Below are positions 19,597 to 63,681 of a stretch of DNA of 64,000 bases, in pieces. The position numbers and the translations under genes are program-made. Each line of letters starts with the position of its first letter. The stretch's first letter is position 1. The stretch lies in the IMG/VR virus record IMGVR_UViG_3300044878_000136, positions 125,232 to 189,231 of that record, one strand, 5' to 3'. The notes under the pieces were generated by a model, which did not search any database, was not told where the DNA came from, and saw only the letters and a program-made list of their open reading frames with translations. The DNA is from a virus. Lineage: Duplodnaviria; Heunggongvirae; Uroviricota; Caudoviricetes.

Positions 19597-19641
19597 AAAA
19601 GATAAGAAGCAGATGCGGAGCCTAGCTCCGCATCTATGCCG
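19597..19641 (-). terminator. intrinsic terminator, near-identical copy of 4513-4547
   Basis: aaaagataagaag then CAGATGCGGAGC-ctag-CTCCGCATCTATGCCGTCA. The stop of 19642..20676 lies in the box. Confidence 0.6.
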
Positions 19642-20676: not shown

Positions 20677-20689
20677 TGCCCATCACTGT

Positions 20690-20730
20690 CTATTAATAGA
20701 GGCTGGTGGGTTTTACCCCACCAGCAGTAT
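20690..20730 (-). terminator. stem-loop CTGGTGGG-tttta-CCCCACCAG with ATAGAGG flank
   Basis: It lies between 19642..20676 and 20737..22347, after the stop of the latter on the minus strand. Confidence 0.4.
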
Positions 20731-20736
20731 TGCGTG

Positions 20737-22347: not shown

Positions 22348-22380
22348 ACTTCTTCCTTAATCACAAACGCGGGTTGTTAT

Positions 22381-22608
22381 TTAGTTTGGGAAACGTACAG
22401 TCATGCCGGGAATGTCAATAAACGTCACGATGTACGCTACGCAATCCCGGAAACGGTTAGAAGGAATGGGCTGGACTTCAATCTGCCAACCCATGTCGTG
22501 CAACGCGCACATTGTTGCGGCGTCAGGATAACCGACCATCACTACGGTCAGGAATTGACGACCAGTCTGCTTAGAGACTACGTGACGTTCTACGTGGAGA
22601 CCGCTCAT
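22381..22608 (-). CDS. small hypothetical protein
   Basis: ORF. Its start overlaps the stop of the upstream gene (ATGA). Confidence 0.35.
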   Translation of the reverse strand: MSGLHVERHVVSKQTGRQFLTVVMVGYPDAATMCALHDMGWQIEVQPIPSNRFRDCVAYIVTFIDIPGMTVRFPN

Positions 22609-23294
22609 TCATTCACCGGTGCCGGACGAGTGTGGGGAATACCCTCTTCTTCCAGCAGGGCGATAATCGACTCGGCGTAGTCCAGTGTGAGGATAGGTCG
22701 CAGCGTCGCCGTGTAGTTCTTCGCCTGAGCCAACAACCGACGACGTTCTTCGAGACTGTAGTTGTTCTCGAGGTCTGCGTCATGCTCAGCCACACGTTGG
22801 TCGGCCTGCGCCTTGTCTTCAGCCGCCTTGGCGAGTTCTTCAGCAGTGGGCGGTGGTTTAGCCGCTTCAACAGCTGCGACACGCACCACTTCGGCTGCAT
22901 CGGTTTCTTTGGCCAACGCTTCCACGGTGACCTTGAACTCGTTGATGAATTGAGCAGCTTCCTCACTGTCCAACGCACGACTGACGTAAGTACCGCGGCC
23001 GAAACGTTTGTAGTAGGTGAAGACCACATCACGCCAGACCATCACGAACTCATCGTCACCCATGTGGCGGGCTTCGAAGAGATCGCAAACAAATTGGTTG
23101 CCATGCTTGGGCCACAGTGGGTCTTTGTCATGGTCGAAGTTCTGGGCGATCCACTTACGCAGGCCGTCCATCTGTTCATCGATCCATTTACCCGTATCGG
23201 TTTCGATCAGGTAAACCGAATGGCCAGCTTCCGCAGCTTCGTCCGGATCTTTGAATTTCACAAACAGTGATACATCTTTAGTGGCGTTATTCAT
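22605..23294 (-). CDS. hypothetical protein
   Basis: 229-aa ORF with an Ala/Glu-rich C-terminal half. Confidence 0.5.
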   Translation of the reverse strand: MNNATKDVSLFVKFKDPDEAAEAGHSVYLIETDTGKWIDEQMDGLRKWIAQNFDHDKDPLWPKHGNQFVCDLFEARHMGDDEFVMVWRDVVFTYYKRFGRGTYVSRALDSEEAAQFINEFKVTVEALAKETDAAEVVRVAAVEAAKPPPTAEELAKAAEDKAQADQRVAEHDADLENNYSLEERRRLLAQAKNYTATLRPILTLDYAESIIALLEEEGIPHTRPAPVNE

Positions 23295-27577: not shown

Positions 27578-28873
27578 TCAGTCAATGATGACGTGGGGCA
27601 TGAACTGCTCTTCGTCAAAGTCATTGACAGCAGAACCGAACTCACGGATGGCGAAACCAGTCGCGTTGGCCAACTTACCCCACTTCGCAGCCTGCGGAGA
27701 CATCCACACACCGCCCAGGAAGTTACGTCCTTCGACCAGACTGCCTGGCTTGACGTATTGTTGGTAGACCATGTTCTCCGATTCATACGGACCATCGGTC
27801 TCTTGCACCGTGGTACCGGTTTCGTCAATGATCTGCACGTTACCGGACATCCGGCCGACCTTTGGCTTTCTGACACACCACTGACGCTCAGCAGCGAACC
27901 TGATGGAACCGAGGTAGGTCGGAATGAACGGCACGCCTTGGGTGTCGAACATACCCGCTTCTTGTAGCTCAGTGATCAGCGAGAAGATACCCTTGTTGGT
28001 CATGAACCACTTGTAGGCTGGTTCCATCACTGCGACGTTCGTGCACCAGCGTTCCCACTGGAGGATCGACTCAGGATGTTTCTCGACCATGTCTTCCCAA
28101 GGCACCAGAACGAACATGCCATCCAACGTAATGCCGTACGCTTCGAATGGCTTGTCGATACGTAGCGATTCGAAACCCAGCGCACGGATATCGACCATCA
28201 TCGCGTTGCCGAACTGATCCAGCGCTTGAGCGATGATCTCGCAGGTAGCCGAGTCATCCACGTATTCACTGTCGAACACCACGCCGATACGGTGGGACTT
28301 GTTGACGTAGCACTCTTTGAGTGCGTTGGTCACCCCTTCGTACCAGTCGTTCGATTGCGACTCGATGTCGTAGTGCTGACCCAGCAGATGGCTCTGCAAG
28401 ACAGTCGACTCGAACAGCATCGTTGGTGTATCGGCATTCAGCTCGTAGATACCAGTAACGGCTTCTGCGACTGGATCGATGGCGAAGTCAAACCTGGAGT
28501 ACAGCGACTGACCCAGCATGCTCTTCTGTTCGTACGTCCATGCCGCGTAGTCGACAAACGCACGGCCTGCCTGACTGCGCAACATCTCGCAATCGAAGTG
28601 CTTGAACAACATGTCGCGGTTAGCGAACGCGTAGTCCAAAGCATTCAACATCACTTCGTACGCTTTGGTCGCTGTGTGTTGGATGCGCTGCATGCCGACT
28701 TCGCTGATGGCGTAGAACGGCAGGTTAGCCTGGTTGGCGATGTGGTAGCCGAAGTGTTGCTTGGCATCCTCGACCAACTCATCCTGGTGCGTATAAAAGC
28801 TACGCAGCCAAGGCATCTCTTCTTCGAGCAGTTTTGGAACGTCCACATGGACAGGATGTTTTACAATTCTCAT
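27578..28873 (-). CDS. glutathionylspermidine-synthase-like ATP-grasp protein (YgiC/YjfC family)
   Basis: Motifs match E. coli YgiC as recalled from memory. SRFDFAIDPVAEAVTGIYELNADTPT matches SRLDLAWDG..LLENNADTPT. C-terminal VRKPKVGRMSGNVQIID...GPYESENMVYQQY matches VVKPIFSREGANVSIIE...GPYGEEGMIVQQF. Confidence 0.75.
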   Translation of the reverse strand: MRIVKHPVHVDVPKLLEEEMPWLRSFYTHQDELVEDAKQHFGYHIANQANLPFYAISEVGMQRIQHTATKAYEVMLNALDYAFANRDMLFKHFDCEMLRSQAGRAFVDYAAWTYEQKSMLGQSLYSRFDFAIDPVAEAVTGIYELNADTPTMLFESTVLQSHLLGQHYDIESQSNDWYEGVTNALKECYVNKSHRIGVVFDSEYVDDSATCEIIAQALDQFGNAMMVDIRALGFESLRIDKPFEAYGITLDGMFVLVPWEDMVEKHPESILQWERWCTNVAVMEPAYKWFMTNKGIFSLITELQEAGMFDTQGVPFIPTYLGSIRFAAERQWCVRKPKVGRMSGNVQIIDETGTTVQETDGPYESENMVYQQYVKPGSLVEGRNFLGGVWMSPQAAKWGKLANATGFAIREFGSAVNDFDEEQFMPHVIID

Positions 28874-34467: not shown

Positions 34468-35445
34468 TTAATAATGGATGTCTACAACGGAGACGATGGT
34501 GTCTTCGTGCAGGGCTTCAATGGCGTCTAGGCCTTTGTGGATGCGTTCTTCCGTGACGGTGAAATCGTCGAGGTCATACAACTCACCTCCTACGACCCAG
34601 GCCGACAACGTCTTCACGCGCAGCGGCGCCAAGCGTTCAAGCAAGGCGTTGGAGAAACGATGTTCGTCGAATGCGAACACCATATCCCGTGGATACCCAT
34701 GCGTCACCCGCAGCTCCTTGAGGAACTCCGAGAACTTCCAGTACACATCCCACTTACGAGCCAGGAGGTATCCGTTAATAGCGTCAGGCGCTACCTGATC
34801 ACGCAGAGCCGGATACATCTCGTGGAAGTACTCGACGAACGTTGGAACCTTGACCCCTTTCGCAGCGAGGTCAGTGCGCATCTGCATCGCACCCGTTTCA
34901 CGGTCTGGGAATTCCTTAGCGATCGCTTCCCAGTCAACGTCTCTGATAGCCAGCGCTGACCACTCACCTACCAGGATTTGACCGTAGATCTTCCCGAACA
35001 CCGTCTGTTTGGCTTCGGCTGCGGTGATTGGAGTGACATGCGCATCTTGCGTGGATGGATCTTTGGCCTTGAGGTAGGAAGACCAACGACCGCCCGGCTC
35101 GTACCAGTCGTACAGACCATCACCATGCAACGCAAACAATTTATAGTCATGGTCCTTCTTGTAGGTCAGGACCCAACTGGCTGGACCGAAGTTAACGGAC
35201 CATGGGGCGCAGGCATCTTCCTCTGGCATCACAACGAATACTTCGAGGAAATCCTTACCCACGCTCGACTCTACGTTCTGGATCATCTCCATGATCTGGC
35301 TGATCATGAGACCGGCAGATGTCGCCTGTGGAAAGGTGTGGCAAAGTACTGGTGTGGAACCAATGGTGAGTTCGTTGTACTTATCCAGCGCCTGCGACAA
35401 TGCGAACCGATCCTGAGGACCGTAAACCATAATTCCCCTATGCAT
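34468..35445 (-). CDS. hypothetical protein
   Basis: 325-aa ORF. The first codons contain the CTATGCATAG palindrome. The start may be the second ATG at 35430. Confidence 0.55.
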   Translation of the reverse strand: MHRGIMVYGPQDRFALSQALDKYNELTIGSTPVLCHTFPQATSAGLMISQIMEMIQNVESSVGKDFLEVFVVMPEEDACAPWSVNFGPASWVLTYKKDHDYKLFALHGDGLYDWYEPGGRWSSYLKAKDPSTQDAHVTPITAAEAKQTVFGKIYGQILVGEWSALAIRDVDWEAIAKEFPDRETGAMQMRTDLAAKGVKVPTFVEYFHEMYPALRDQVAPDAINGYLLARKWDVYWKFSEFLKELRVTHGYPRDMVFAFDEHRFSNALLERLAPLRVKTLSAWVVGGELYDLDDFTVTEERIHKGLDAIEALHEDTIVSVVDIHY

Positions 35446-36780: not shown

Positions 36781-38004
36781 ATGAGCGTACTGCGCGAACT
36801 AACACTGAACCATATGGCGATTACTCCCTCGATGGAATGCGCCAGTATTGAAGATAACATCACCCAGCTACAAGGACGTTTCATTCGTCTGGTTTCACTC
36901 CTCCCAGGATCGGGTGTAGATGGTGGACTCTCCATGGAATCCGCTAACTACCTGACCATCGAAGGGTACTCCACCGAGTCCGAAGGAAAGTCGCTCGTCC
37001 AACGTATCTGGGAGGGGATCAAAGCCACCTTCCGCAAGATCAAAGAGTTCCTTGGTCGCCTGTTGAGCTTGCGTAAGCATCGCTTGAAAGGCAACGAGTT
37101 CAAGATCGAGAAACTCAAGAAGTACATCCAGGCCATCGACACCTCGTCGAAGCCGTCGGGTGAAATGCAAGTAGGTCCTTCGTTACTGCCTGCCGAGCCT
37201 GGTCATGCTGCGGCCGCAATCGCGGCTTTCCGTAATCAGGCTAAACAGGTTATCACCTACCGCAGCCATGCATTGGAAACCCTTGGCGCACTTGACATCA
37301 AGTCGCTGGAAACGAAGACCGCTGAAGATGTCCTCAAGACTCTGGGTGGTCGTGGTTCCATCGTCAAGAAGGGTCATGGCGAGGCTGTCTACGAGAACAA
37401 CCTGTATACCGTCAGCTACGGTATCGACGTCGGTGGTCACCACGCAGCCATCAAAACCCAACCGGCCTCGGTTGTGATGATGAATTCGTTGGTTGGCGAG
37501 TACGAGCATCTGGTAAAGGATGACGGCGAATTCACCAAGTCCATCGAAGGACACGTTGTCTCTGGCGATAAACTCATCGCCGCGCTCGAGAAGATGCTGG
37601 CCGACAACGACTGGCGTCATCAGAAAGCGCCTGACAACCTGGACGAGTTCGAAGCACAGACCAAGAAGGGTATGCATATCTTCCGAGCCTGTAGCGATCT
37701 CGTGATGTACATCCATAAGCTGCAACGTCTGTCGCACAGCGTGGTCTGGGATGCGCTCTATGGCGACATCGAAGAACTACTGCGCAAGTCACTCGGCCAG
37801 TACAAGTTCAAGAAACACGAACTGATGGACGAAGACATCAAGAACAACCCGGACGCCGAAGGCCAGCGCTATCGCGAAGAACAAGCTCGCGATAAGGCAC
37901 AGGCTGAGAAGAATCGTCGGGAAGAACAGAATCGTCGTCAGCATCAGCAGGCGCATGATTTCGCTGATCAACAGCGTCGTCACAGCCAACAGCACGGTAT
38001 GTAA
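36781..38004 (+). CDS. hypothetical protein, distant paralog of 41769..43070
   Basis: 407-aa ORF on an isolated plus-strand island. It shares the N-terminal motif GLSMESA with 41769..43070. The C-terminus is R/Q/E-rich. Confidence 0.6.
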   Translation: MSVLRELTLNHMAITPSMECASIEDNITQLQGRFIRLVSLLPGSGVDGGLSMESANYLTIEGYSTESEGKSLVQRIWEGIKATFRKIKEFLGRLLSLRKHRLKGNEFKIEKLKKYIQAIDTSSKPSGEMQVGPSLLPAEPGHAAAAIAAFRNQAKQVITYRSHALETLGALDIKSLETKTAEDVLKTLGGRGSIVKKGHGEAVYENNLYTVSYGIDVGGHHAAIKTQPASVVMMNSLVGEYEHLVKDDGEFTKSIEGHVVSGDKLIAALEKMLADNDWRHQKAPDNLDEFEAQTKKGMHIFRACSDLVMYIHKLQRLSHSVVWDALYGDIEELLRKSLGQYKFKKHELMDEDIKNNPDAEGQRYREEQARDKAQAEKNRREEQNRRQHQQAHDFADQQRRHSQQHGM

Positions 38005-41768: not shown

Positions 41769-43070
41769 ATGGGTTTCAGACAAGAGCACGGTAAGGTGCT
41801 AAAGCTGCAAGTAGTACAGTCGTTGTTTGGCTACATTCCCGTCGAAGAGCGTTGGGAACACGAAGCCTCTTTTGAATCGGCTTATCGTAAGATCCTGGGT
41901 AAGGCTTGGGACGATAGCGGGCTCTCCATGGAATCCGCTGAAGGTTTGTCGTATTACCTGCGTGGCGTTGCAAGCGCCTCTGGCAAGCCTATCACCCACA
42001 ACCACCGCAAGGTGATGTTGGGCCTGTCCCGATCCGTACTGTCGCTGGAATCGCGTCTCGACACCCTTCCCGAAGGTACGCTGGCTGCGGCTATCTCCCG
42101 TCCAATCATCGAGCAGGAAGCTACCGTCCTCTTCAAGCGTTACGGGCTGGATGGCCTGTCGACTGAAGGTTTGATCGGTGGAGCACTGAAGTCTGTTGCA
42201 GGTGCGTTGAAAGCGATGTTCGCTCCACGTCCTACCAAAGATGCCAAGTTCAGCAAGATCGAACAACAGTGGGATCCGAAGAACGTGGACTACAGCCAAG
42301 TCCACAAGATGGCCGAGTACATCGACGAATGTTTCCCGGCCAGTAACAACGATCCTGACTGGACGCCGAAGGAAGGGAAGATCTCTGGCGAAGGTATCGT
42401 CAAGAATCTGACCTGGGGTCATGAGTTCGATGAGAAGAACCCTCTCGAGTTCCTGAAGAAGAAGTTCGCTGCCTGGGAGAAGTTCTACCAGGGTCACGAA
42501 GCCGCTGTAGCGCGTTACAGCGCTGCGATCATGGCTGACGAGAAGTCCACTCGTGCTGCCATCAACACGGCCCGTGAAGACGACGACAAGATGGTGGAAA
42601 TCCTCGATAAGGCTGTCAAGGCCTTGCGCAAGATCGAGAACCCATCCGACTACGCAGCGAAGACCAAGTGCGACTTCCCTGGCGGCCGTACGCTCACCGT
42701 GGACAAGCGCCACGATCTGTCCAACGGCTACGACATCACCGAAGTCGTACCGGACAAGGCGTTCAAGGACATCGCTCAGATTCGCTCTCTGAAGGAAGAC
42801 GAAGCTCGCGCCATGCTGACCTGGTTGCGTGACCGCGTCACCGAGCTCAAGAAGTTCACCACGATCTTCGACAAGGCTCATTGGTCCGACCACTCCGATG
42901 GTGATGTTATCTGGGATCAGACCGAGCACATCGACAACGAAGAGTACGCGATCATGGTCTACCATCAGACCTGCGATGCTGACTTCCTCTACGACGTCGA
43001 TGACATCTCTCAAATCCTCGCACATCTGTCTAACGGCATCATGACCTGGGTTGACCGTAGTTTCAACTAA
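41769..43070 (+). CDS. hypothetical protein, distant paralog of 36781..38004
   Basis: 433-aa ORF on a plus-strand island. It shares the GLSMESA N-terminal motif. The antisense 408-aa ORF is V/L/R-rich and rejected. Confidence 0.6.
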   Translation: MGFRQEHGKVLKLQVVQSLFGYIPVEERWEHEASFESAYRKILGKAWDDSGLSMESAEGLSYYLRGVASASGKPITHNHRKVMLGLSRSVLSLESRLDTLPEGTLAAAISRPIIEQEATVLFKRYGLDGLSTEGLIGGALKSVAGALKAMFAPRPTKDAKFSKIEQQWDPKNVDYSQVHKMAEYIDECFPASNNDPDWTPKEGKISGEGIVKNLTWGHEFDEKNPLEFLKKKFAAWEKFYQGHEAAVARYSAAIMADEKSTRAAINTAREDDDKMVEILDKAVKALRKIENPSDYAAKTKCDFPGGRTLTVDKRHDLSNGYDITEVVPDKAFKDIAQIRSLKEDEARAMLTWLRDRVTELKKFTTIFDKAHWSDHSDGDVIWDQTEHIDNEEYAIMVYHQTCDADFLYDVDDISQILAHLSNGIMTWVDRSFN

Positions 43071-43458: not shown

Positions 43459-45945
43459 ATGATTGAAGAAGTAGTTAAGTTCGATGGATCGGTAGAACCA
43501 TTCATCGCGAAGAAGATCAATGGTTGGGGCAAGTGGAGCGCTCGAGGCTTCTCCAAGTACATTGATTGGGCTGAAATCGTCACCAAGACTGTTTCGCAGA
43601 TGCCTTCCCGCGTTACTTCTTCCGAGCTGAACCAAGGCCTCATCCGTAACTGCATCGACCAGGACACCTGGGCCGGCCAGTTGATGGCTGGTCGCCTTTA
43701 TGCTATCGAATGCCATAAAGAGGTATTCGGCAGTAAAGACCCGTTGCCGCTGAAGCAGATCCACGAGATCATGCAAGCCGCTGGCGTGATGGTCAAGTTG
43801 GCCTACTCCGACGAAGAATACGTCAAGATCAACCGCTGGATCAACCACCGTCTCGATTATGACTGCGCCCATTATCAACTGAAACAAGGCCGCGACAAGT
43901 ACGCCCTGCGTAACCGCATGACAGGCCGTATCTACGAGACCCGTCAGTTGGCCCTGATGCGTGTCGCAATGGTCGTGTGTGAGCGTGAAGAGCGTTCCGG
44001 CCGTATGGCTCGCCTGAAGTCCTTCTTCGCTGACCTGTCGGAAGAGCGGATCTCCGCACCAACGCCAAACCACAACAACATGGGTACCGGTCACAACGGC
44101 TTCTTCAGCTGCTGCCTGTACACCAGTGGCGATACCAAAGAGTCCATCGCTGTAACCACCCACATCGCCGAAGTCATGACCTACATGTCGGCAGGCCTGG
44201 GTAGCAACCACCACGTCCGTTCGTTGGGCGATCCGATTCGTGGCGGCAGTATCGTCCACAACGGTAAAGCGCCGTACTTCAATAAACAGACCGGCGTGGT
44301 CAAGTCCAACAAGCAAGGCTCCCGTGGCGGCTCGTTGACTGAATACTTCTCGGCATTTGACCCTGAAGTCAAAGAGATGATGGTGCTGAAGAACCCACGC
44401 ACCCCTCTGAACAAGCGTAACCGCAACATCGACTACTGCATGATGCTGAACCGCTTCCTGCTGTGGAAGTCGGCTGGCGAAGAAAACGTATTCATGTTCA
44501 ACTGCTACACCGCGCCTGACCTGTACGCCGCCATGTACGGTAAGGACCTGGAGCTGTTCGCTACTCTCTACGAGAAGTACGAGAAAGACGAATCCTTCAA
44601 GAAGACCTGGATCTCTGCCCGCTGGTTGGTAGTGAACTCCCGTTCGCAAGGTTTCGAAACTGGCCGCTACTACATGGCCATGATCGACACCATCAACTTC
44701 CACACTCCTCATCGTGACCAGATCTTCAGTTCGAACCTGTGTGTTGAAATCACACAGCCGACCTACTGGTACAGCCACATGATGGAGCTGTACAGCGACA
44801 AGTTCCTGTCCTACATTCGTCTGACCACGAAGAAGCGTAAACAGGTTCTGCTGGATGGCAACCAAGCCATCCTGATCAAGAACCGCATCAGTGGTCCGGT
44901 GGCTGCCATCGAACTGCTGCCAGGCGACACCTACTGCACGCTGGACGATCCAACCGAACACAAGGTGGCCAAGGTAGTCTCTTCCCGTCGTGAGCCTGAG
45001 GTTTCGTTGTGTGCGCTTGGCGCGATCATCGTCACCAACTGCAAGACCGAAGAACAGTACCAGGAAGCCACGTACAACCTGCTGTACATGATCGACTTCT
45101 GCATCGACGAAAACGAGTATGCGCTTCCGCACATGAAGCTCACCGCTCAGGCTCGTCGTAACGCCGGTGTCGGCATCATGGACTTGGCGCACCACATGGC
45201 GCTGAAAGGCCTGAAGTACAACACCAAAGAAGGTCTGGAAGAAATCCACCGGGTGGCAGAACGCCACATGTACTGGTTGATCCAGGCTTCTATCCGTCTG
45301 GCCAAGGAACGTGGCAACGCTCCATGGATCCATAAGACCGACTGGGTACGTGGTTGGACTCCTCAGAAGACCTACTCCCGTGAAGTAGATACGCTGGCGA
45401 ACTTCGTCAACGTCTACGATTGGGATCAGGTGTCTCTGGATCTGATCGACGTAGGTGGTGGTCGCTTCAGTTCTCTCTGCGCACACATGCCGGGCGAATC
45501 CAGTTCCAAGTACAGCGCCTGCACCAACAGCCTCATGGGTCTGCGTTATCTGTCCATCACCAAGAAGGACGGTAGCAACGCCATGGAGTGGGTGGCTCCA
45601 GAAGCAGATACCCTCAAAGATCAATACACGATCATGTGGGACATGACTCGTATCGAGCAGATGAACTCCTATGCCGTGGTTCAGAAATGGACCGACCAAT
45701 CGATCTCGGCCGACTACTACGCCGTGATCAAGGGCGACGACAAGATCGATAGTCTAGAGCTGGTGCAAGAGACCAACCACTGGGCCAACATGGGCGGTAA
45801 GACTTGGTACTACACCAACGTCGAGACCTCTGATAAAGAAGCCCTCAAAGGGACGCTTGAACGCATCAAACGTGAAGCCCTGTTCGAAGACGATGGCCTC
45901 GACCTCGATGGTCCTGTCTGCACCGGCGGCGGCTGCTCCGTTTAA
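43459..45945 (+). CDS. nrdA: ribonucleoside-diphosphate reductase alpha subunit, class I, with ATP-cone
   Basis: N-terminal ATP-cone (VVKFDGSVEPFIAKKI). It is 828 aa and is followed by the beta subunit gene. There are conserved Cys-containing catalytic segments. Confidence 0.85.
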   Translation: MIEEVVKFDGSVEPFIAKKINGWGKWSARGFSKYIDWAEIVTKTVSQMPSRVTSSELNQGLIRNCIDQDTWAGQLMAGRLYAIECHKEVFGSKDPLPLKQIHEIMQAAGVMVKLAYSDEEYVKINRWINHRLDYDCAHYQLKQGRDKYALRNRMTGRIYETRQLALMRVAMVVCEREERSGRMARLKSFFADLSEERISAPTPNHNNMGTGHNGFFSCCLYTSGDTKESIAVTTHIAEVMTYMSAGLGSNHHVRSLGDPIRGGSIVHNGKAPYFNKQTGVVKSNKQGSRGGSLTEYFSAFDPEVKEMMVLKNPRTPLNKRNRNIDYCMMLNRFLLWKSAGEENVFMFNCYTAPDLYAAMYGKDLELFATLYEKYEKDESFKKTWISARWLVVNSRSQGFETGRYYMAMIDTINFHTPHRDQIFSSNLCVEITQPTYWYSHMMELYSDKFLSYIRLTTKKRKQVLLDGNQAILIKNRISGPVAAIELLPGDTYCTLDDPTEHKVAKVVSSRREPEVSLCALGAIIVTNCKTEEQYQEATYNLLYMIDFCIDENEYALPHMKLTAQARRNAGVGIMDLAHHMALKGLKYNTKEGLEEIHRVAERHMYWLIQASIRLAKERGNAPWIHKTDWVRGWTPQKTYSREVDTLANFVNVYDWDQVSLDLIDVGGGRFSSLCAHMPGESSSKYSACTNSLMGLRYLSITKKDGSNAMEWVAPEADTLKDQYTIMWDMTRIEQMNSYAVVQKWTDQSISADYYAVIKGDDKIDSLELVQETNHWANMGGKTWYYTNVETSDKEALKGTLERIKREALFEDDGLDLDGPVCTGGGCSV

Positions 45946-46010: not shown

Positions 46011-47174
46011 ATGAGCAGCGCTACCGACCTAATCCTACCCCCATCCGTGAAAGACGAAAACTTCGCGGACATGATCTTCAACCCCAATAAGACTGACTAC
46101 GACAGCCCCGCACTGTTCTTAGGTCAGCGTGGTGGGTTGGGCGACACCATTCATGACCACCACCCAGAACTGTGGAAGTACTGGCGTGCTCTGCGTTCTC
46201 TTGACTGGGACACCAACGAGTTCAACTTCGAACCTTGCAAGCTCGAGTTCCAAACCGTTAAGCCTGGCATCGCTCAGGCCATGATCCAGAACCTGGGCTT
46301 CCAGTGGGAATCGGACACCGAAGCCGCTAACGGCATCAGCGCCGTGGCTAACCACTTCGTGACCAACTCTGCACTCAAGACCACTTGGGAGCAGATCACT
46401 GCGAACGAAAACCTGCACTGGACCACCTACTCGGAAATCGTGCGTTACAGCTTCGACGATCCGAACGCCGTACTGAAAGACGTACTGGGTGTGAAGGAAT
46501 CGATCCAGCGTTTCCACCGTATCGGCGAAGCCATGGGCAAAGCCTACCGTATCGGTCTGGAATACTCCCTGGGTCTGCGTAAGTCGGACGATCCTGAAGT
46601 CTACGCAGCAGCCTTCATGTTCACCGTAGCGCTATTCCTGCTCGAGCGTGTGAACTTCATGGGCTCCTTCGCAGTAACTGGCGCTATCGCTCAGACAGGC
46701 GACTTCATCCCTATCTGCAATGCCGTTCAGCGTATCGCGCAAGACGAAGCAGAAGTACACGTTAACGTGGGCAAGTACGTCATCGGCTACGAACTTACCA
46801 CCGCACGCGGTCAAGCCTGCTGGAAAGCCAACCGTCAGTGGATCGATGACATGATCATGGAGGCCCGTGCCTCCGAGATGCGTTGGATCGGTTTCCAGCG
46901 TGACTCCGGTTCGATCGTTCCGGGTACTGGTTGGGATGAGTTGAAGACCTACGTGAACTTCAACGTAGCCGACGCCTGCGACGTACTGCACCGCCCTGTG
47001 GAGTTCAATGCTCCGTCCCAGTGCAACCTGCCGTACATGATCAAGTGGCTGGACGTATCGAAGACTCAGCACTCCCCGCAAGAGTCTGACATCGGTCAGT
47101 ACCGTGTAAACGTGGTACGCAGTAACGACGAAGGCATCAAGCTGCCGTTCAACCTGCACCGCGTCATGGCGTAA
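46011..47174 (+). CDS. nrdB: ribonucleoside-diphosphate reductase beta subunit
   Basis: 387 aa directly downstream of nrdA. It has ferritin-like helices with E/H iron-ligand patterns. Confidence 0.8.
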   Translation: MSSATDLILPPSVKDENFADMIFNPNKTDYDSPALFLGQRGGLGDTIHDHHPELWKYWRALRSLDWDTNEFNFEPCKLEFQTVKPGIAQAMIQNLGFQWESDTEAANGISAVANHFVTNSALKTTWEQITANENLHWTTYSEIVRYSFDDPNAVLKDVLGVKESIQRFHRIGEAMGKAYRIGLEYSLGLRKSDDPEVYAAAFMFTVALFLLERVNFMGSFAVTGAIAQTGDFIPICNAVQRIAQDEAEVHVNVGKYVIGYELTTARGQACWKANRQWIDDMIMEARASEMRWIGFQRDSGSIVPGTGWDELKTYVNFNVADACDVLHRPVEFNAPSQCNLPYMIKWLDVSKTQHSPQESDIGQYRVNVVRSNDEGIKLPFNLHRVMA

Positions 47175-49697: not shown

Positions 49698-50066
49698 CTA
49701 CTGCCTCCGAATTTCGCCCATGCGCTCCACGGTAATGTCGAGGGACTCACAGACCTTTACAAGGAAGTTGACGGTGATGTGGCGATGGCAGAACTTGTCT
49801 GCCCCACAGTAACAGGCGATCGCCACCTCTGGCATGTTGCACACTTCCAGCCAACGTTCACGGTTGTTGCGATAAGACTCGCGCATCTTCCCCGTGTAGT
49901 GGCTGGTGTACTCAGCCTCAGTGATTTCGTTTGCCTTGTACGCCATCACCAGTTTCCGATCAGGAGCAAAGACGGGGTCACCACTCTTGAAGGTGGTATC
50001 GAGAAACGGAATGCCTAAGCGATCCGCTTCCCGCCACTGGGCAACCTGGATGGTCCAGATTTTCAT
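49698..50066 (-). CDS. hypothetical protein
   Basis: I moved the start to ATG 50066 (MKIWTIQ...), which forms an ATGA overlap with the upstream gene stop. The track N-extension overlaps 50063..50722 by 200 nt. Confidence 0.45.
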   Translation of the reverse strand: MKIWTIQVAQWREADRLGIPFLDTTFKSGDPVFAPDRKLVMAYKANEITEAEYTSHYTGKMRESYRNNRERWLEVCNMPEVAIACYCGADKFCHRHITVNFLVKVCESLDITVERMGEIRRQ

Positions 50067-50722
50067 CCGTTGATGATCCGTTCCGAGTCGTATTCCTCCA
50101 TGAGACGGTCGATCTCGTCGAGGATGTTGTTGTGCCACATGTGTTTGGCTTCCACGGCGAGCAAACGATCGTGGACCTTGTCGAACATCTCCCAGAACGG
50201 GATACCCATCAACTTCAGGCAATGGACGTAGCAGGAGAACAGCACCATGCACTCGTTCCAAAGTTCCCCAAGAGGATTGGACTGACCCATGTGATCGATG
50301 TCCTCGATCGTCTTGGCCATTTTACCCATGCTCGTGATCATACTCTCTCGAGCGCTGATGTTCATCCACGGCATGGTGGCGAACGTACCTGGGACCAGCT
50401 TACCGCAGATGTTGGTCATCGACAAGCAGATGATCACCCCATCCAAGGCTATGCGCTCGAAACGCTTCCAGCCGTTGATCTCACCCTTCTTCCATTCCGG
50501 CGTCCAGGTCTCCAGCTTGAGCACTAGTTCAGCCACGTACTTACAGTGATGCAGTACGAGGTGAGTCAGACGCTTGGCCTTTGGCAGGACGTAGATGTCG
50601 GTGTGGTACCGGGCATCATGCAGGTCCTGACGATACTGCGCTCGACGCAGACGCTCTGCGAAGAGGTTCATGTCGATTTGCGTACCGTCGTCTTTGTGAA
50701 CAGGCATTGGTGCAATGCTCAT
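50063..50722 (-). CDS. hypothetical protein
   Basis: 219-aa ORF. Confidence 0.5.
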   Translation of the reverse strand: MSIAPMPVHKDDGTQIDMNLFAERLRRAQYRQDLHDARYHTDIYVLPKAKRLTHLVLHHCKYVAELVLKLETWTPEWKKGEINGWKRFERIALDGVIICLSMTNICGKLVPGTFATMPWMNISARESMITSMGKMAKTIEDIDHMGQSNPLGELWNECMVLFSCYVHCLKLMGIPFWEMFDKVHDRLLAVEAKHMWHNNILDEIDRLMEEYDSERIING

Positions 50723-51107: not shown

Positions 51108-51683
51108 TTAGACCCTCGGTAAGGTTATTCCTGTTTGCCCCTGGTATTTACCACCGCGGTCGTCGTAGCTGGTTTCACACTCTTCGCCTTGCAGGAAGAG
51201 GAACTGCGCGATACCTTCGCCCACGTAGACCCGCATAGGGCTGTTGGTGCTGTTTGCCAGTTCGATCACGATGTTACCTTCGAACTCAGGCTCGAGAGGC
51301 GTCACGTTGACCTGAAGACCTGCACGAGCATAAGTGGATTTACCCAGGCAGATCACCAAAGTATCGCGAGGGATCTTGAAGTATTCGACAGTACGCCCGA
51401 GCATGTACGTGTTTGGCGGAAGGATTACCCAACGGCCTTTGACACCCGTGTGGATTTCAGGGATGTAAAGGAAGTTCTCGTCGAGTTCCTTGGGGTCGAT
51501 GATTTCGCCAGTGTTGTTACAGAACACACGGCATTCGTCTGCCAGTTGCACGTCATACCCGAACGAGCTGGGGCCGTAGCTGATGCGCTTGATACCATCG
51601 GCCAGGCGAACCAGTTCGTGGTTAAACGGGGTGATCATACCCACTTCGGCGCGTTGACGGATTTGGCGGTCATTGAGAATCAT
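51108..51683 (-). CDS. dcd: dCTP deaminase family (dUTPase fold)
   Basis: N-terminal MILNDRQI. C-terminal VICLGKSTYARAGLQVNVTPLEPEFEGNIVIELANSTNSPMRVYVGEGIAQFLF matches the dCTP deaminase core (GRSSLARLG...IDPGW...LE..N). Confidence 0.75.
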   Translation of the reverse strand: MILNDRQIRQRAEVGMITPFNHELVRLADGIKRISYGPSSFGYDVQLADECRVFCNNTGEIIDPKELDENFLYIPEIHTGVKGRWVILPPNTYMLGRTVEYFKIPRDTLVICLGKSTYARAGLQVNVTPLEPEFEGNIVIELANSTNSPMRVYVGEGIAQFLFLQGEECETSYDDRGGKYQGQTGITLPRV

Positions 51684-52591: not shown

Positions 52592-53212
52592 CTAACCGAA
52601 GATCTTGTCCAATACAGACCGGACACAATCAGCTACTTCGGTCGGGTGTGGTCTGGCATCCAGGACGATGAACCGCGCAGGGTCTTGTGCGATTCGCATC
52701 TTGTAGCCTTCGATGGACTGTTCGGCGTTCTCGTAGAACTCCGTCTCCATCCGGTCCAGTCTGCCGCGAGCCGCAGCGCGTTTCATGCTGGTTTCTACGT
52801 CGATGTCGAAGTAGATGGTCCAGTTTGGTTTGAAGTCGCCGATAGACGCCTTCTCGATCGCTTCGATCTGCTTCGAGTGGATACCCTTGGCACGTTGGTA
52901 GGAGAACGTCGAGTCAGAGAAACGATCGCACAGTACGACGTAACCTTTGGCCAGATGCGGTTCAATGCATTGTGCCACATGTTGCTGGCGGGCTGCGTAG
53001 AACATCATCGTCTCTGCCACGATGTCTACCTTTTCATCGTGAGGGGACAGCAGCAGTTCACGGATCTTCTCCGCGAATGGCGTACCCCCAGGCTCACGCG
53101 TGACGATGTACGGGATACCCTTTAATTGCAGGTATTCCTCGATTACGTCACGTTGAGTTGTCTTGCCAGCGCCATCAATCCCTTCAAGGGAAATCATAAT
53201 TCCACGTTGCAT
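52592..53212 (-). CDS. tmk: thymidylate kinase
   Basis: P-loop ISLEGIDGAGKTT and LID-region arginines. 206 aa. Confidence 0.85.
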   Translation of the reverse strand: MQRGIMISLEGIDGAGKTTQRDVIEEYLQLKGIPYIVTREPGGTPFAEKIRELLLSPHDEKVDIVAETMMFYAARQQHVAQCIEPHLAKGYVVLCDRFSDSTFSYQRAKGIHSKQIEAIEKASIGDFKPNWTIYFDIDVETSMKRAAARGRLDRMETEFYENAEQSIEGYKMRIAQDPARFIVLDARPHPTEVADCVRSVLDKIFG

Positions 53213-56472: not shown

Positions 56473-57210
56473 TCAGTTTACTGCTTTAGCGGCCAGAAAG
56501 TGTTTGGCTTGTTCTGTAAAGACCTGTCTCCCAACAGTGGCTTTAATTGCCTGACCGGTGTACGTGTAGAACACCACATCACGCATGAACACTTCCTGAC
56601 GCTGGATCAGCTCTTCGGCCGATAGAACATTACCGGAACGAGAGAACTCTTGCCAGAGGCCGTTCAGGTACTTGCAGCTATGACCCGAGAAGTTCTGCAA
56701 GATATCTGCATCACGGATCATCTTCTGGAGGCTGGACTTTGGTTCGTGGATGAACGGGAACTCAGTCACCTTGATCAGGTTCTTGATCGCTTCCTTATTG
56801 AACTTCAGCCAGACCTTCGTGTCGTGGTCTTTGATCCAGGAACACGCATTCTCAATGAAGAGATACGCTTGCTCGATGTTCTCCGAGTCAGGACGCAGAC
56901 CACCGGAATGCATGACGTCATGCAGACACGCCGCTGCGAGCAACAACTTCAGTTGCCCAGCGTCGAAGGTCAGCGAATCGCTCATGTACAACTTACCGCA
57001 CCAGCTCACCATGTTCAGCAGATGCTGTTCATTGTGATACGGGAGATCGGCGGAGATGTTGTTCTCCTGGACGTACGACCACAGATGAATCAGGCCAAAC
57101 TGATCCAGCAGGTTAATCGCGTAGACCGCCGTGACTTGTTCGTCAACGGTCAACTGAGCGGCAGGCAGACGGCGCTGCTGCGCCTGAGGTACTTGATCGT
57201 TCATGTTCAC
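56473..57210 (-). CDS. HD-domain phosphohydrolase
   Basis: HNEQH ... LHDVMH fits the H...HD...D metal-binding pattern. Confidence 0.55.
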   Translation of the reverse strand: MNMNDQVPQAQQRRLPAAQLTVDEQVTAVYAINLLDQFGLIHLWSYVQENNISADLPYHNEQHLLNMVSWCGKLYMSDSLTFDAGQLKLLLAAACLHDVMHSGGLRPDSENIEQAYLFIENACSWIKDHDTKVWLKFNKEAIKNLIKVTEFPFIHEPKSSLQKMIRDADILQNFSGHSCKYLNGLWQEFSRSGNVLSAEELIQRQEVFMRDVVFYTYTGQAIKATVGRQVFTEQAKHFLAAKAVN

Positions 57211-59064: not shown

Positions 59065-59400
59065 TTATTGAACGCGTCTGGGTTTGATGAAGCCTTGCAT
59101 GATCAAGAACTCGACCATGGCTTCACAGGTTGGAGGATTTCCGCGGTACGTCAGCGACAGCTCCACTTCACGCGGGTTGAAGTGTTTGAGGATGCGGTAC
59201 TCCTCGGGGAATGCATTGTCTTCACCGGTGACCACAAAGATGCGTTCATCCGGTCCAGATAGATCTAGGTGCTCACCGAAAAAGTTGATAATAGACATGG
59301 GAGAGAGTTCCATTGTCATGCTTGACGCTCTCAAGTGTCTGGAAGCGCCATTCCTTAACACCGTTCTCGAACTTGACGAAGGTGTCGCAAGCATCTTCAC
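59065..59400 (-). CDS. small hypothetical protein, start uncertain
   Basis: ORF. The N-terminal part overlaps the 3' end of folA. An internal ATG at 59298/59319 is possible. Confidence 0.35.
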   Translation of the reverse strand: MKMLATPSSSSRTVLRNGASRHLRASSMTMELSPMSIINFFGEHLDLSGPDERIFVVTGEDNAFPEEYRILKHFNPREVELSLTYRGNPPTCEAMVEFLIMQGFIKPRRVQ

Positions 59401-59890
59401 TCGCCACCACCGTCAACTCAATCCGGGAGCAGTAAGGCAACATCGCCTCGTAGATCTGTGCCCCACCGATCACGTAGATCCATTCGGTCTCGAAAGACTT
59501 CGCAAGATCCAGCGCTTCTTGAACGGACCTAACCACATGGACTTCTGCCGGCCACTCAGTATCAGGCGTAGGCTTATCGCGACTGGTGATCACGATGTTG
59601 ATGCGATCCGGTAAAGGCTTCCCAAGCGACATGTAGGTGTTGTAACCCTGAATCACTACATTGCCTAGGGTGAATGCCCTGAACCTCGGCAGATCGCCTT
59701 TGATGCGTCCCCATGGCAGGGTGTTCTTCATCCCGATGCCACCATGTTCCGTCATCGCCAAGATAGCTGCGAGATTGGGTATTGGGGTAACGGGTTTCGG
59801 TCGTTTGAGTTCAGCCAAACGTTGCTGCCAATCTTCATAACGCATTACTAGCTTCCTCAGCTTAATAGCGCGAGTTGGTCGTGACGTCAA
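59273..59890 (-). CDS. folA: dihydrofolate reductase
   Basis: GGIGMKNTLPWGRIKGDLPRFRAFTLGNVVIQGYNTYMSLGKPLPDRINIVITS aligns with the E. coli FolA core (MPW...DL..F...T....V.MGR.T..S.GRPLPGR.NI.LS). Confidence 0.8.
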   Translation of the reverse strand: MTSRPTRAIKLRKLVMRYEDWQQRLAELKRPKPVTPIPNLAAILAMTEHGGIGMKNTLPWGRIKGDLPRFRAFTLGNVVIQGYNTYMSLGKPLPDRINIVITSRDKPTPDTEWPAEVHVVRSVQEALDLAKSFETEWIYVIGGAQIYEAMLPYCSRIELTVVASEDACDTFVKFENGVKEWRFQTLESVKHDNGTLSHVYYQLFR

Positions 59891-60788: not shown

Positions 60789-61149
60789 AGTACTCTGCGT
60801 GGATGACTCTGGCGTCGGGATGTTCCCGACGACGCAAGTACTGTTGCATTCCTACGAAAGCTTCAGTGCGGATGCAGAACGGTGTAACGTAAGCGTGGAC
60901 GCAGGGCTTCCAGCATTCTTCGTCTACGCTGTACTCACGGATCTCATAGACCGATTTCACAATCTGATCTTCAGCGATGACCGTGACTACCTCAAGATAC
61001 AGAACGTGCGGTACTTGCTGGAACTCAGTAACCGGAACCAACGCGTACGACCCCATGCGGTATTCGCCGTCCGGGGTAAAGGAGATTGCTTCATTTTGCA
61101 ATTCGGTATTAGAGTTTTTAATGATGCCGAATGACTTGCGTGTTAACAT
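60769..61149 (-). CDS. hypothetical protein
   Basis: 126-aa ORF. Confidence 0.45.
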   Translation of the reverse strand: MLTRKSFGIIKNSNTELQNEAISFTPDGEYRMGSYALVPVTEFQQVPHVLYLEVVTVIAEDQIVKSVYEIREYSVDEECWKPCVHAYVTPFCIRTEAFVGMQQYLRRREHPDARVIHAEYFVEYAA

Positions 61150-61202
61150 GATTGAACCCCAGTGGAACGGGGGAGATGGTCCTCCCCCAAGCGATACATC
61201 CT

Positions 61203-62822
61203 TTATACAGCCACTGGAATGTCCAAGAACCCCCGATGACTGTAACCGCTAAAGCTTACTGCGTCGAGCGTGAAATCATCGATCTCTTTGAAGTCACGTT
61301 CGAAGTGAATGCGAACATCGCAGTCAGGCATGGATTCCCGGCTGAGTTGTTCTTTGATCGCATCGATCTGGTTCACGTAGATGTGCGAGTCCCCACCGAC
61401 CCACGTCAACGACGCCGCTTCCATATTGGTGACGTGAGCGATCACATGCACCAGCAAGGCGTATTGCGCTACGTTGAACGGCGTACCCAGTGGGGTGTCC
61501 GAAGAACGCATGACCAGCAGGCAATGCAGATGGCGTGTTGGGATCTTGTAGTGATCGCCGTTCAGGATCGTTTCCATGTATTCGCGGAAACCAGCATCGC
61601 TGTCGAACTTGGCGATGAAGGTATCCGGAGTAAGGATGCATTGCTTATCCTGCCAGAGGATCGACAAGAAGTCATTCCAACAGTCACGCTCGCCGTACAG
61701 ATCTTCACAGACTTCCTTCCCGGTACGGTAGGAGGTCATGAACTGGAAGTACAGGTGGCATGGAGGCAATGCACAGCGCCACGTCAGACCTGGGTTCCAG
61801 GCGGTCACCAGCATACGGCGATCGTCTGGATTGGTGCGCAGCTTGTCGATGCAGTTTTGCAACTGGTCGATTTCACGGTGCATCACGACCTTGCCGTAGA
61901 ACTCTTCGGAATGGCTGACCCGGATAACCTGCTGATAGCCCTGCGCCAAGTAAGCCTTGACCTCGTCTTCATTGACGAGTTGGGTATCCTGCCAGTGACG
62001 CCATTGCGGACCGTAGCCACCAGGACCAATGTCAGCATCCAGCAACGGATAGGCTGGCACCTTGAGCTTGTTGAGGCAGATCCACAGCTGATTGACCTGC
62101 TCCATGTTGAGGTCGGTCTGGACGAACTCAGTGCCGCTCCAGATCGGCAACGTCATTTCGACACCACCACCTTCGCAATGGAACTCGCTTAGGTTCCAGC
62201 GGATCTGCGTCCACGTATCTGCGTCGTTCTTCGACACACGGGTTAGACGCTTCTTCAAGCTGACCGGCTTACCACCGCCTTCAGACACACGGGACGGGAT
62301 ACCCATCTCGCACAGGCAACGGTACAGTTCACGGCCGAAGTATTCCGGCAGCGATTTCCAGGTGGAGCGAGTACCGTCTGGATTGGTGACGTAGACGGTA
62401 AGGCTACCCAACACACCGCTCTTGGCGACATGCGCTTCGACGATCTTCTTGATCTCAGGACCGTGACCCTGAGCAATAGCGACGTCGATCATGTCTTGAA
62501 GAGTCAGCTCACGCTTGACCGGTTCGTCGTACACCGCAGTGCCCGGCATGAACCAGTCATCCCAAATCCCATTCTTGCGGTCACGCAGGAACTTGATGCT
62601 GGAAGAACCAGAGATGAACCACTCCATCTCTTCGCCCAGCTTCTGATCTCGCAGTTCCTTGGTAGAAGGCCACGGGTTCTTCTTACCACGCAGATCGAAC
62701 TTCATCGACATGGCAGGCAACATCAAGGTATCGACACCAGTGCGGTTCGTCTTGAGGTGACCTTCGTTCAACAGCTGGCTGTAAGTATCATGAAACGCTT
62801 TATCAACAGCATTCAACGTCAT
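61203..62822 (-). CDS. thyA: thymidylate synthase family protein with two large insertions
   Basis: NEGHLKTNRTGVDTL, DPDDRRMLVTAWNPG, catalytic ALPPCHLYFQF and DTPLGTPFNVAQYALLVHVIAHV all match ThyA blocks. It is 539 aa versus about 264 aa for canonical ThyA. An insert of about 190 aa follows the N-terminal block and an insert of about 70 aa follows the catalytic Cys block. Confidence 0.8.
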   Translation of the reverse strand: MTLNAVDKAFHDTYSQLLNEGHLKTNRTGVDTLMLPAMSMKFDLRGKKNPWPSTKELRDQKLGEEMEWFISGSSSIKFLRDRKNGIWDDWFMPGTAVYDEPVKRELTLQDMIDVAIAQGHGPEIKKIVEAHVAKSGVLGSLTVYVTNPDGTRSTWKSLPEYFGRELYRCLCEMGIPSRVSEGGGKPVSLKKRLTRVSKNDADTWTQIRWNLSEFHCEGGGVEMTLPIWSGTEFVQTDLNMEQVNQLWICLNKLKVPAYPLLDADIGPGGYGPQWRHWQDTQLVNEDEVKAYLAQGYQQVIRVSHSEEFYGKVVMHREIDQLQNCIDKLRTNPDDRRMLVTAWNPGLTWRCALPPCHLYFQFMTSYRTGKEVCEDLYGERDCWNDFLSILWQDKQCILTPDTFIAKFDSDAGFREYMETILNGDHYKIPTRHLHCLLVMRSSDTPLGTPFNVAQYALLVHVIAHVTNMEAASLTWVGGDSHIYVNQIDAIKEQLSRESMPDCDVRIHFERDFKEIDDFTLDAVSFSGYSHRGFLDIPVAV

Positions 62823-62886
62823 TGCTGACTCCTTAATGGAAAGGGAATAAAAGGCTAGGGAAAAACCCTAGCCTCTTGCACGTATT

Positions 62887-63681
62887 TTACACCGCCTGAG
62901 CGATGTCTTTTTGCATGGTTTCGTAGGTCTTGTAGTGGTCGAGCAACCACTCGTAAGACATCGGAGTACCATCGATACCGGCCTTGGCCAGGATTTCAGG
63001 AGTACGGTCCAACAGGAACTGCGACCAGTTCTCGAACTTCAGCTCCTTGACTTCAGGAGCGTCGAATTCCATCCAGGCTGGAGCGCTGATGTCGTCTTCG
63101 CCGGAGCGGAAAGTAACACCGTCAGCCAGTTGGAACACGCAGACGATCGCCAGGTGAGTGCTACCCACGTCGTCAGCTGGTTCGTAGATCACACCGATAT
63201 CGTGCATGATGCCGAACGGTGGTGGGATTTCTGCATCGACGCCTGCGACTTCGAAAGTCACCGGTGCTTGCAGTTGCAGTTCTTCGTACAGCTCGCGGTA
63301 GCCAGAGGCCATCACGGTCGCTACAGGGTCCAGCACGCCCTTCTCAGTGAAGACGAAGTCGATGATGTCGACATGACCGCCGAAGCCGGCCGAGTTATCG
63401 CGCAGACGGGTTTCGGTACCGTTCGAACCACGCAGATACTTCACGAACTTCTTGCCGGTCGAATCGACTACCAGCATGTAAAGGATCGGGTGGACGATAT
63501 CGAGATCTTCTTCCATCGCCAGACGGGTTTTGCAGACCACGTCAGGCGTCAGTGCAGCCAACACTTCCATCGGGTTCTGGATGGACAGACGATTGACCTC
63601 CAGTACTTGCAAGGCAACGGCCGACCGGTTGAAACCGAGGATCAGTTCCTTCTTCTTCGCGTATTCCAAATGCTGTTTCAT
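62887..63681 (-). CDS. hypothetical protein, possible Nudix-like hydrolase
   Basis: GGHVD...SGYRELYEELQL loosely resembles the Nudix box (GX5EX7REUXEEXGU, with G replaced by Q). Confidence 0.4.
   Translation of the reverse strand: MKQHLEYAKKKELILGFNRSAVALQVLEVNRLSIQNPMEVLAALTPDVVCKTRLAMEEDLDIVHPILYMLVVDSTGKKFVKYLRGSNGTETRLRDNSAGFGGHVDIIDFVFTEKGVLDPVATVMASGYRELYEELQLQAPVTFEVAGVDAEIPPPFGIMHDIGVIYEPADDVGSTHLAIVCVFQLADGVTFRSGEDDISAPAWMEFDAPEVKELKFENWSQFLLDRTPEILAKAGIDGTPMSYEWLLDHYKTYETMQKDIAQAV

Follow-up and report, generated by a model that had tools for sequence, protein, structure and literature searches.

Why a phage should encode a doubled version of thymidylate synthase (TS), which ranks among the most conserved and most thoroughly studied enzymes, and whether the doubled enzyme still makes ordinary thymidylate, are the questions raised by the gene at positions 61203..62822 (minus strand) of a 64,000-nucleotide stretch of Caudoviricetes DNA (IMG/VR record IMGVR_UViG_3300044878_000136, positions 125,232 to 189,231; hereafter the window). 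The gene, which comes from a phiKZ-related jumbo phage, encodes a ThyA-type TS of 539 amino acids (aa) followed by a stop codon, while TSs usually have 264 to 320 residues. A preliminary description had seen in it a ThyA homologue enlarged by two insertions, which could be extra domains or could mark a pyrimidine-modifying variant, such as a hydroxymethylase, that supplies a non-canonical base. As set out below, we put the probability that the protein is an ordinary TS, forming thymidine monophosphate (dTMP) and carrying accessory domains, at about 82%. The extra mass is predicted to consist of folded, selected, lineage-specific surface domains.

The 539-aa open reading frame (ORF) matched the Pfam family PF00303 (Thymidylat_synt) in two stretches, with 227.4 bits against a cut-off of 24.3 (E = 2e-67), and the protein passed the thyA equivalog TIGR03284 (194.2 bits versus a cut-off of 108.35). 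Scores against the narrower NF00249x equivalogs fell below their cut-offs (e.g., 196.9 versus 327), which is expected because the protein has diverged and is interrupted by inserts. In a PHROG scan, the only families matched were those named thymidylate synthase, with phrog_160 at E = 1.5e-76. Likewise, all sequence matches in the PDB were TSs, and they fell into three separated blocks of the query (q8-98, q318-363, and q430-539). The N-terminal block that binds deoxyuridine monophosphate (dUMP; q8-98), the PPCH motif with the catalytic Cys355, and the PFNVAQYALL motif with Asn450 follow one another in the canonical TS order, as had been read from the sequence at the outset. Identity to Escherichia coli ThyA is about 38% over the core, and the approximately 275 extra residues lie in three surface insertions. 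Alignment with E. coli ThyA and with family members, together with Foldseek for the gene as a whole and AlphaFold2 (AF2) for sites 2 and 3, yielded the following layout, from the N to the C terminus.

62553..62822 (minus strand): core block 1, aa 1-90, with Arg27 (E. coli R21, dUMP phosphate), Glu65 (E58), and IWDDW with Trp87 and Trp90 (W80, W83); from alignments
62028..62552 (minus strand): insertion site 1, aa 91-265, about 168 aa longer than in E. coli, in a small-domain loop, with two tandem modules
62283..62528 (minus strand): module A of site 1, aa 99-180, helix-helix-beta hairpin-helix; from hhalign against module B and from codon comparison
62037..62282 (minus strand): module B of site 1, aa 181-262, fold as in module A; from hhalign, with the basic motif PVSLKKRLxRVSKND..W
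61992..62027 (minus strand): core block 2, aa 266-277, GPGGYGPQWRHW, with Tyr270 (E. coli Y94); from alignments
61878..61991 (minus strand): insertion site 2, aa 278-315, about 32 extra aa, a strand-helix-strands element; from alignments and AF2
61743..61877 (minus strand): core block 3, aa 316-360, with REIDQ, Arg335/Arg336 (R126, R127), PPCH with Cys355 (window 61758-61760), and His356; from alignments
61536..61742 (minus strand): insertion site 3, aa 361-429, about 64 extra aa, a four-helix element in the hairpin after the Cys strand; from alignments and AF2
61203..61535 (minus strand): core block 4, aa 430-539 plus stop, with MRSSD (R439, S440, D442), PFN with Asn450 (N177), DSHIY (H480, Y482), and the C-terminal PVAV

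The insertions therefore number three, located after IWDDW, after WRHW, and in the hairpin that follows the catalytic-Cys strand. The segment of about 190 aa that had been taken for one insertion consists of sites 1 and 2, since the conserved DIGPGGYGPQWRHW block (E. coli 88-101, including Tyr94) separates site 1 (q91-265) from site 2 (q278-315), while the second segment of about 70 aa stands as site 3. Loops at the insertion points are known to vary in length among TSs; those of sites 1 and 2 presumably carry short inserts in eukaryotic TSs as well, and we take site 1 to border the cleft from which the p-aminobenzoyl-glutamate tail of folate exits. Across 100 homologues, E65, W87, W90, C355, H356, R335, R336, and R439 are invariant, and R27 is retained in at least 90%. 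All four arginines for dUMP-phosphate binding (E. coli R21, R166, R126′, and R127′) are present, as is the Cys146 nucleophile in its P-C-H context. As judged from these alignments, the insertions appear to spare the active site, the folate pocket, and the C-terminal lid.

Residues were compared one by one among the query, 11 diverse homologues, E. coli ThyA, the dCMP hydroxymethylase gp42 of T4 (246 aa), and the dUMP hydroxymethylase gp29 of SPO1 (383 aa). In E. coli numbering, the query family is in the ThyA state at R21, E58, I79, W80, W83, Y94, R126, R127, L143, C146, H147, R166, S167, D169, G173, F176, N177, H207, and Y209, and ends in P-V-A-V. The set that forms the folate pocket and serves hydride transfer (E58, W80, W83, Y94, L143, D169, and F176, with the V-A-I/V carboxylate lid), whose roles are established and were reportedly laid out by Carreras and Santi in 1995 (cited in PMC8989533), is complete. 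T4 gp42 and SPO1 gp29 both lack W83, His147, Phe176, and the C-terminal lid, and gp42 has Asp177; gp29 further carries Gly at W80, Asp at L143, Asn at H147, Ala at F176, and Gln at R127, with a C-terminal extension in place of the lid. None of the gp29-type states (W80, W83, H147, F176, R127, and the tail) is found in the query, which has the ThyA residue at each. The positions at which the hydroxymethylases deviate are those that bind folate and keep the exocyclic-methylene intermediate shielded, with the result that it undergoes hydride transfer and is not hydrated. The gp42-type signature (Asp177 with a residue other than His at 147) is absent too, the query having Asn450 and His356. Since positions 177 and 147 discriminate between uracil and cytosine substrates (PMC8670742), retention of Asn177 as Asn450 indicates dUMP as the substrate, which agrees with what had been suggested from this residue before. 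The only deviation from the ThyA state that we found is at Gln165, the residue that orients Asn177: it is Met in the query, as it is in T4 gp42, and Met, Leu, Thr, or Cys in most homologues checked. Gln165 is conserved but not defining, and placement in the ThyA family does not rest on it. The enzyme very probably makes ordinary thymidylate and not a modified base.

What, then, are the additional residues? AlphaFold2 was run on the full-length protein with a 100-sequence alignment. The model had a mean predicted local distance difference test score (pLDDT) of 93.5 and a predicted TM-score of 0.86, no segment fell below a pLDDT of 50, and the inserts formed compact alpha/beta or helical elements, which bears out the earlier suggestion that they are discrete folded units. 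Insert 1 modelled alone still reached a pLDDT of 90.3. A Foldseek search of the PDB returned thymidylate synthases only (E = 3e-24), with TM-scores up to 0.93 when normalised to the target (E. coli TS) and about 0.46 when normalised to the query; the latter value indicates that about half of the protein lies outside the TS fold.

The long reading frame recurs widely. A JGI contig of 263,994 bp encodes an identical protein, and a search of a large protein database gave 2,598 homologues at E ≤ 1e-10. Among the best 120 of these, which span 346-881 aa, many sit on jumbo-phage contigs of 240-275 kb, coming from independent JGI, ENA, Logan, and NCBI assemblies. Length and architecture are unchanged in homologues of 87%, 80%, and 75% identity from independent assemblies. 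Moreover, all three sites are expanded in 100 of 100 aligned homologues (417-664 aa), down to about 31% identity, with anchor-to-anchor lengths of 75-303, 33-110, and 38-83 aa at sites 1, 2, and 3, respectively.

Codon-level comparison was made with the homologues at 87% (P0002) and 75% identity. The ratio of nonsynonymous to synonymous change (dN/dS) was 0.04-0.08 for the core, 0.05-0.12 for module B, 0.14-0.27 for module A, 0.17-0.44 for site 2, and 0.45-0.53 for site 3. Against P0002, with a proportion of synonymous differences (pS) of 0.37-0.63, the ratio was below 1 in every insert. All the inserts are therefore translated, with purifying selection acting on each. Constraint on module B comes close to that on the core; it is relaxed at sites 2 and 3, with site 3 evolving fastest. 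Conservation is much lower in the inserts than in the core (mean top-residue frequency of 0.29 versus 0.55-0.81), and GC content is alike in the two (0.547 in the inserts and 0.540 in the core). No group I intron or other RNA was found by Rfam in 60900-63100 at E up to 1, and no intein (Hint) or endonuclease domain was found by Pfam in the query or its inserts. Elsewhere in the family, Pfam recognises intein domains of the Hint type in the homologues P0083, P0106, and P0115, and in Pseudomonas phage SL2 (MF805716.1 52736-55161) a GIY-YIG homing-endonuclease gene splits the TS gene. Mobile elements have targeted jumbo-phage thyA repeatedly.

Site 1 holds the larger part of the additional sequence and is built by tandem duplication. 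Its predicted secondary structure repeats helix-helix-beta hairpin-helix twice, and hhalign aligned q99-180 with q181-262 at a probability of 93.9% (E = 1.5e-7) over 73 of 82 columns. The best-conserved motif of all the inserts is PVSLKKRLxRVSKND..W in module B, within which R192, L193, R195, and W204 are invariant among 22 two-module homologues. When the module was counted by hidden Markov model (HMM), one copy was present in 13, two in 48, and three in 6 of the 120 homologues; the six three-copy proteins are ordered A-A-B, and module B always adjoins the re-entry into the core. The tandem two-module form of site 1 has been seen so far only on metagenomic contigs.

The module is nearly exclusive to these enzymes. 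Searching 1.84 billion representative proteins with the module profile gave 18 matches, 17 of which were long ThyAs. The remaining one, P0121, is a standalone 223-aa phage protein without a TS domain whose N-terminal residues, about 80 in number, are a clear copy of module A; its gene (L004:8001-8672) lies on Logan contig SRR19576297_59558 (54 kb) among unannotated neighbours. Occurrence in this standalone protein argues that the module is an autonomous domain, apparently almost confined to the long ThyA family. The inserts searched alone against Pfam, as had been advised, gave no significant match, the best (E = 0.07) being a collagen-flanked repeat that we took as noise. Foldseek against the BFVD viral structures revealed no relative of the module at E ≤ 0.001, and the insert profile found nothing significant among PDB sequences, nor any TS at E up to 10. 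One alignment, between the N terminus of BUD31 (PDB 8ro0_N) and the module B motif SLKKRLxRVSKND..W (aa 188-204), had an E value of 0.045 and is probably due to chance. With no relative recognised in Pfam, in the PDB, or among viral structures, the module appears to be a previously undescribed domain.

For sites 2 and 3, homologous inserts are found in the ThyA of the cultured phage pPa_SNUABM_DT01 (DT01) at both sites (E = 3.8e-15 for site 2 and E = 4.9e-17 for site 3), and in that of phage Psa21 at site 2 (E = 2e-5) and marginally at site 3 (E = 0.008). Site 3 also aligned end to end with module A at a borderline level (hhalign probability of 69%, E = 4.5e-5), a result that is only suggestive of a diverged third copy of the module in another loop. 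No relation was detected between site 2 and the modules or between sites 2 and 3. The long site-2 inserts (about 103-110 aa) of 18 homologues were considered as further module copies and rejected (hhalign probability below 2%). Relative to the 87%-identity homologue, site 3 had a proportion of nonsynonymous differences (pN) of 0.42 and a pS of 0.63, compared with 0.02 and 0.37 for the core, and a similar jump in pN and pS occurred at site 2 relative to the 75%-identity homologue. Because both quantities are raised there, the two sites look as though they undergo cassette-style replacement independent of the core, or else fast co-evolution.

The surroundings of the gene are those of thymidylate supply. 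The window encodes a complete conventional route to thymidine triphosphate (dTTP), comprising NrdA, NrdB, a dCTP deaminase-like protein, ThyA, dihydrofolate reductase (DHFR), thymidylate kinase (Tmk), and an HD phosphohydrolase. The genes other than ThyA are as follows.

59273..59890 (minus strand): DHFR, 1.3 kb downstream of ThyA on the same strand; PF00186, E = 1.6e-35
56473-57210: HD phosphohydrolase
52592..53212 (minus strand): thymidylate kinase, the consumer of dTMP; PF02223, E = 2.8e-44
51108..51683 (minus strand): dCTP deaminase-like/dUTPase-fold protein, of the branch that supplies dUMP; PF22769, E = 1.8e-27, and PF00692, E = 1.2e-5
43459-45945 and 46011-47174: NrdA and NrdB, ribonucleotide reductase (RNR)

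The preliminary description was right in placing folA about 1.3 kb away. DHFR is needed after methylation, which yields dihydrofolate, and not after hydroxymethylation. Related loci are arranged similarly to different degrees: that of P0004 has the gene order of the window, namely, a 264-aa gene (L011:4142-4936), ThyA, three small ORFs, and DHFR; at the P0022 locus, DHFR is about 9 kb from ThyA, beside phiKZ internal-head-protein genes; and at the P0095 locus, Tmk is about 10 kb from ThyA. The companion genes of the pathway for 5-hydroxymethyluracil and DNA hypermodification have been described (PMC8989533). Among 50 window ORFs scanned with Pfam and/or PHROGs, of which about 30 remained unannotated, none matched the annotated families of 5-HMUDK, aGPT-Pplase, glycosyltransferase, or dTTPase/dTMPase.

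Against this background, we weighed the idea that the protein is a pyrimidine-modifying paralogue, either a gp29-like dUMP hydroxymethylase or a dCMP methylase/hydroxymethylase, in which the inserts would admit water or recruit modification enzymes. Base-modifying enzymes do exist among phage TS homologues (PMC8989533), SPO1 gp29 is likewise enlarged, Gln165 is replaced by Met just as in T4 gp42, and many neighbouring ORFs are unannotated. However, every other discriminating position (W80, W83, L143, H147, F176, N177, and the PVAV tail) is in the ThyA state, the thyA equivalog cut-off is passed, and the PHROG matches are confined to thymidylate synthases. The linked DHFR also counts for methylation, because only folate oxidation by the TS homologue would make it necessary; a canonical thymidylate kinase accompanies it, and modification families went undetected among the ORFs scanned. 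We therefore regard a base-modifying role, which had been offered as the alternative to extra domains, as very improbable. The earlier statement that the known hydroxymethylases measure about 260-320 aa is inexact, gp29 having 383 aa. For annotation, the present case illustrates that enzyme size alone is no evidence for a base-modifying paralogue.

Two further readings concern the inserts themselves. They might be functionless relics of mobile elements, left behind in permissive surface loops by the decay of inteins or homing-endonuclease genes or by introns whose remnants stayed in frame. TS genes are hot spots for such elements, as the inteins of three homologues and the GIY-YIG gene of SL2 attest, and the low conservation of the inserts relative to the core and the dN/dS of about 0.5 at site 3 would fit decay. 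Yet no intein, endonuclease, other Pfam, or Rfam intron match was obtained in the inserts, their folds are predicted confidently and are compact, purifying selection acts on all of them (strongly so on module B, with dN/dS of 0.05-0.12), and both the tandem modules and the persistence of the three sites in each of the 100 aligned homologues argue for a retained function. A relic origin without function thus seems unlikely to us. As for an assembly or sequencing artefact or a pseudogene, the contig is metagenomic and has no DNA-level match among deposited phage genomes; but an identical protein comes from a JGI contig, the architecture is shared by homologues at 87%, 80%, and 75% identity from independent assemblies, the frame is intact across 539 codons, core dN/dS is 0.04-0.08, every insert stays below 1, and GC content is even. 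The chance of an artefact, which had been named as a possible undoing of the whole observation, is negligible. The reading as an ordinary TS with accessory domains is the one that we retain.

Comparison with known enzymes helps to define what is distinctive here. E. coli ThyA (264 aa) shares the fold and the C-terminal tail and agrees with the query at all residues for catalysis, dUMP binding, and the folate pocket, and the reaction and its dependence on DHFR are expected to be alike; it differs in lacking the three insertions and in having Gln165 where the query has Met. The top Foldseek and phmmer matches are the long ThyAs of Lactobacillus casei and Enterococcus faecalis (315-316 aa), which have a 50-aa insert at the loop of site 1, after the W80-W83 helix. 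The L. casei enzyme differs in having no insert at site 3, whereas site 1 of the query comprises about 168 aa in two alpha/beta modules, and homology between the two inserts is unsupported because the site-1 profile retrieves no TS from the PDB even at E up to 10. Protozoan bifunctional DHFR-TSs (500-610 aa; chains 4eil and 4eck) are also enlarged TS polypeptides, with the extra sequence serving to couple DHFR. Unlike in those proteins, DHFR here is a separate gene 1.3 kb away, the inserts have no DHFR match, and PF00303 is the only domain in the protein. Among the phage-encoded members of the superfamily, SPO1 gp29 resembles the query in being enlarged and in keeping Asn177, but its extra length is a C-terminal extension and not internal modules; T4 gp42 resembles it in being of the same superfamily and phage encoded.

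Long ThyAs are also annotated in cultured jumbo phages. The ThyA of DT01 (473 aa) is the best match from a cultured phage, at 43% identity, with clearly homologous inserts at sites 2 and 3, and that of Psa21 (473 aa) shares these more weakly. An insertion at the position of site 2 is present in DT01, Psa21, Lu11 (426 aa), and SPN3US (338 aa) alike, and one at the position of site 3 in all of these except Lu11; insertion at sites 2 and 3 thus appears to be a general trait of ThyAs from phiKZ-related jumbo phages. The two-module site 1 occurs in none of the four, and the module HMMs detected no module in DT01, whose site-1 insert is shorter, in Psa21, or in SPN3US. The enzyme of Salmonella phage SPN3US (L007:319-1335) has no insert at site 1. 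Over its core it has 76% identity to E. coli ThyA and looks host derived, yet it carries insertions of about 35-45 aa at the loops of sites 2 and 3. Since these are not significantly similar to those of the long ThyA family, only the positions are shared. A core of this kind with inserts at these positions suggests mosaic recombination with the thyA gene of a host, or else that such loops gained inserts more than once. The preliminary description had allowed that the protein might align end to end with a characterised long ThyA family of ordinary function. An alignment over the full length is indeed obtained with a large family that includes DT01 and Psa21, but no experimentally characterised member was found: our literature search turned up no experimental or functional study of long jumbo-phage ThyAs, those of DT01, Psa21, Lu11, and SPN3US included.

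We propose that the enzyme would methylate dUMP to dTMP with 5,10-methylene-tetrahydrofolate, releasing dihydrofolate. The neighbouring DHFR would recycle the dihydrofolate, thymidylate kinase would act next on the dTMP, and the pathway would be fed by the RNR and dCTP deaminase-like genes. The inserts, for their part, may act as binding surfaces that leave the chemistry unchanged. A specific binding role is proposed because module B is constrained like the core, has an invariant basic motif (R192, R195, and K198), and lies beside the folate-binding small domain; we advance it tentatively, as one possibility that falls well short of being expected. By analogy with the T4 deoxynucleoside triphosphate (dNTP)-synthetase complex, the modules might dock a partner from the deoxynucleotide-synthesis machinery of the phage. 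Work from the Mathews laboratory and the 1994 crystal structure of T4 TS reportedly led to the proposal that surface insertions of T4 Td are partner contact sites in that complex. T4 Td (286 aa) has insertions of only a few residues and serves as a working analogy for what the inserts may do. Alternatively, the ligand could be folate, with the modules extending a groove for its acidic polyglutamate tail. The channelling to DHFR suggested in the preliminary description would be another idea of this kind. That the module of about 80 aa is a new binding domain specific to jumbo phages, which tethers TS to DHFR, thymidylate kinase, RNR, or a cytoplasmic assembly feeding the phage nucleus, or which extends the polyglutamate groove, is a speculation to which we give rather less than even odds. 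The fast-evolving, cassette-like sites 2 and 3 would then reflect co-evolution with a partner or the evasion of some host factor directed against the phage enzyme.

TS and thymidylate kinase have been found excluded from the phage nucleus (bioRxiv 10.1101/2021.04.26.441357). If the inserts are indeed binding surfaces, they would offer an entry point to how nucleus-forming jumbo phages organise dNTP synthesis in the cytoplasm. The data describe a clade of jumbo phages with ThyAs 1.6-2.5 times the usual size, built by inserting and duplicating a domain that has no known relative. The long ThyA family is also a natural case of domain insertion into a rigid enzyme that is an obligate dimer. No new DNA chemistry is indicated, and the relevance of the locus lies in jumbo-phage cell biology and in protein domain insertion.

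Several minor features of the window deserve mention. When 14 kb of the window was compared with deposited phage genomes by megablast, no DNA-level match appeared, and the phage therefore has no close cultured relative; its helicase is closest (40-43%) to those of DT01, LucasX, Eowyn, FLC9, and similar phiKZ-related jumbo phages. Directly upstream of ThyA, a 264-aa gene (62887-63681, minus strand) matches phrog_8902, of unknown function, without a Pfam or PDB match, and its product by eye contains a degenerate Nudix-like box, G-x13-RELYEELQL. A DUF488-N3a protein of the "active subclade" is encoded at 49698-50261 (minus strand; E = 5.5e-10), and its gene and that of the dCTP deaminase-like protein share a minus-strand block with Tmk, DHFR, and ThyA. 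An ORF of 1014 aa (19636-22680, plus strand) has no Pfam or PHROG match, and further unannotated ORFs of 250-430 aa lie at 41769-43070, 36781-38004, and 34468-35445. Two products are unusual for a phage, a glutathionylspermidine synthase-like protein (27578-28873, minus strand; phrog_6215, E = 1.8e-80) and a protein with collagen triple-helix repeats (19-1113, plus strand; PF01391, E = 3.8e-24).

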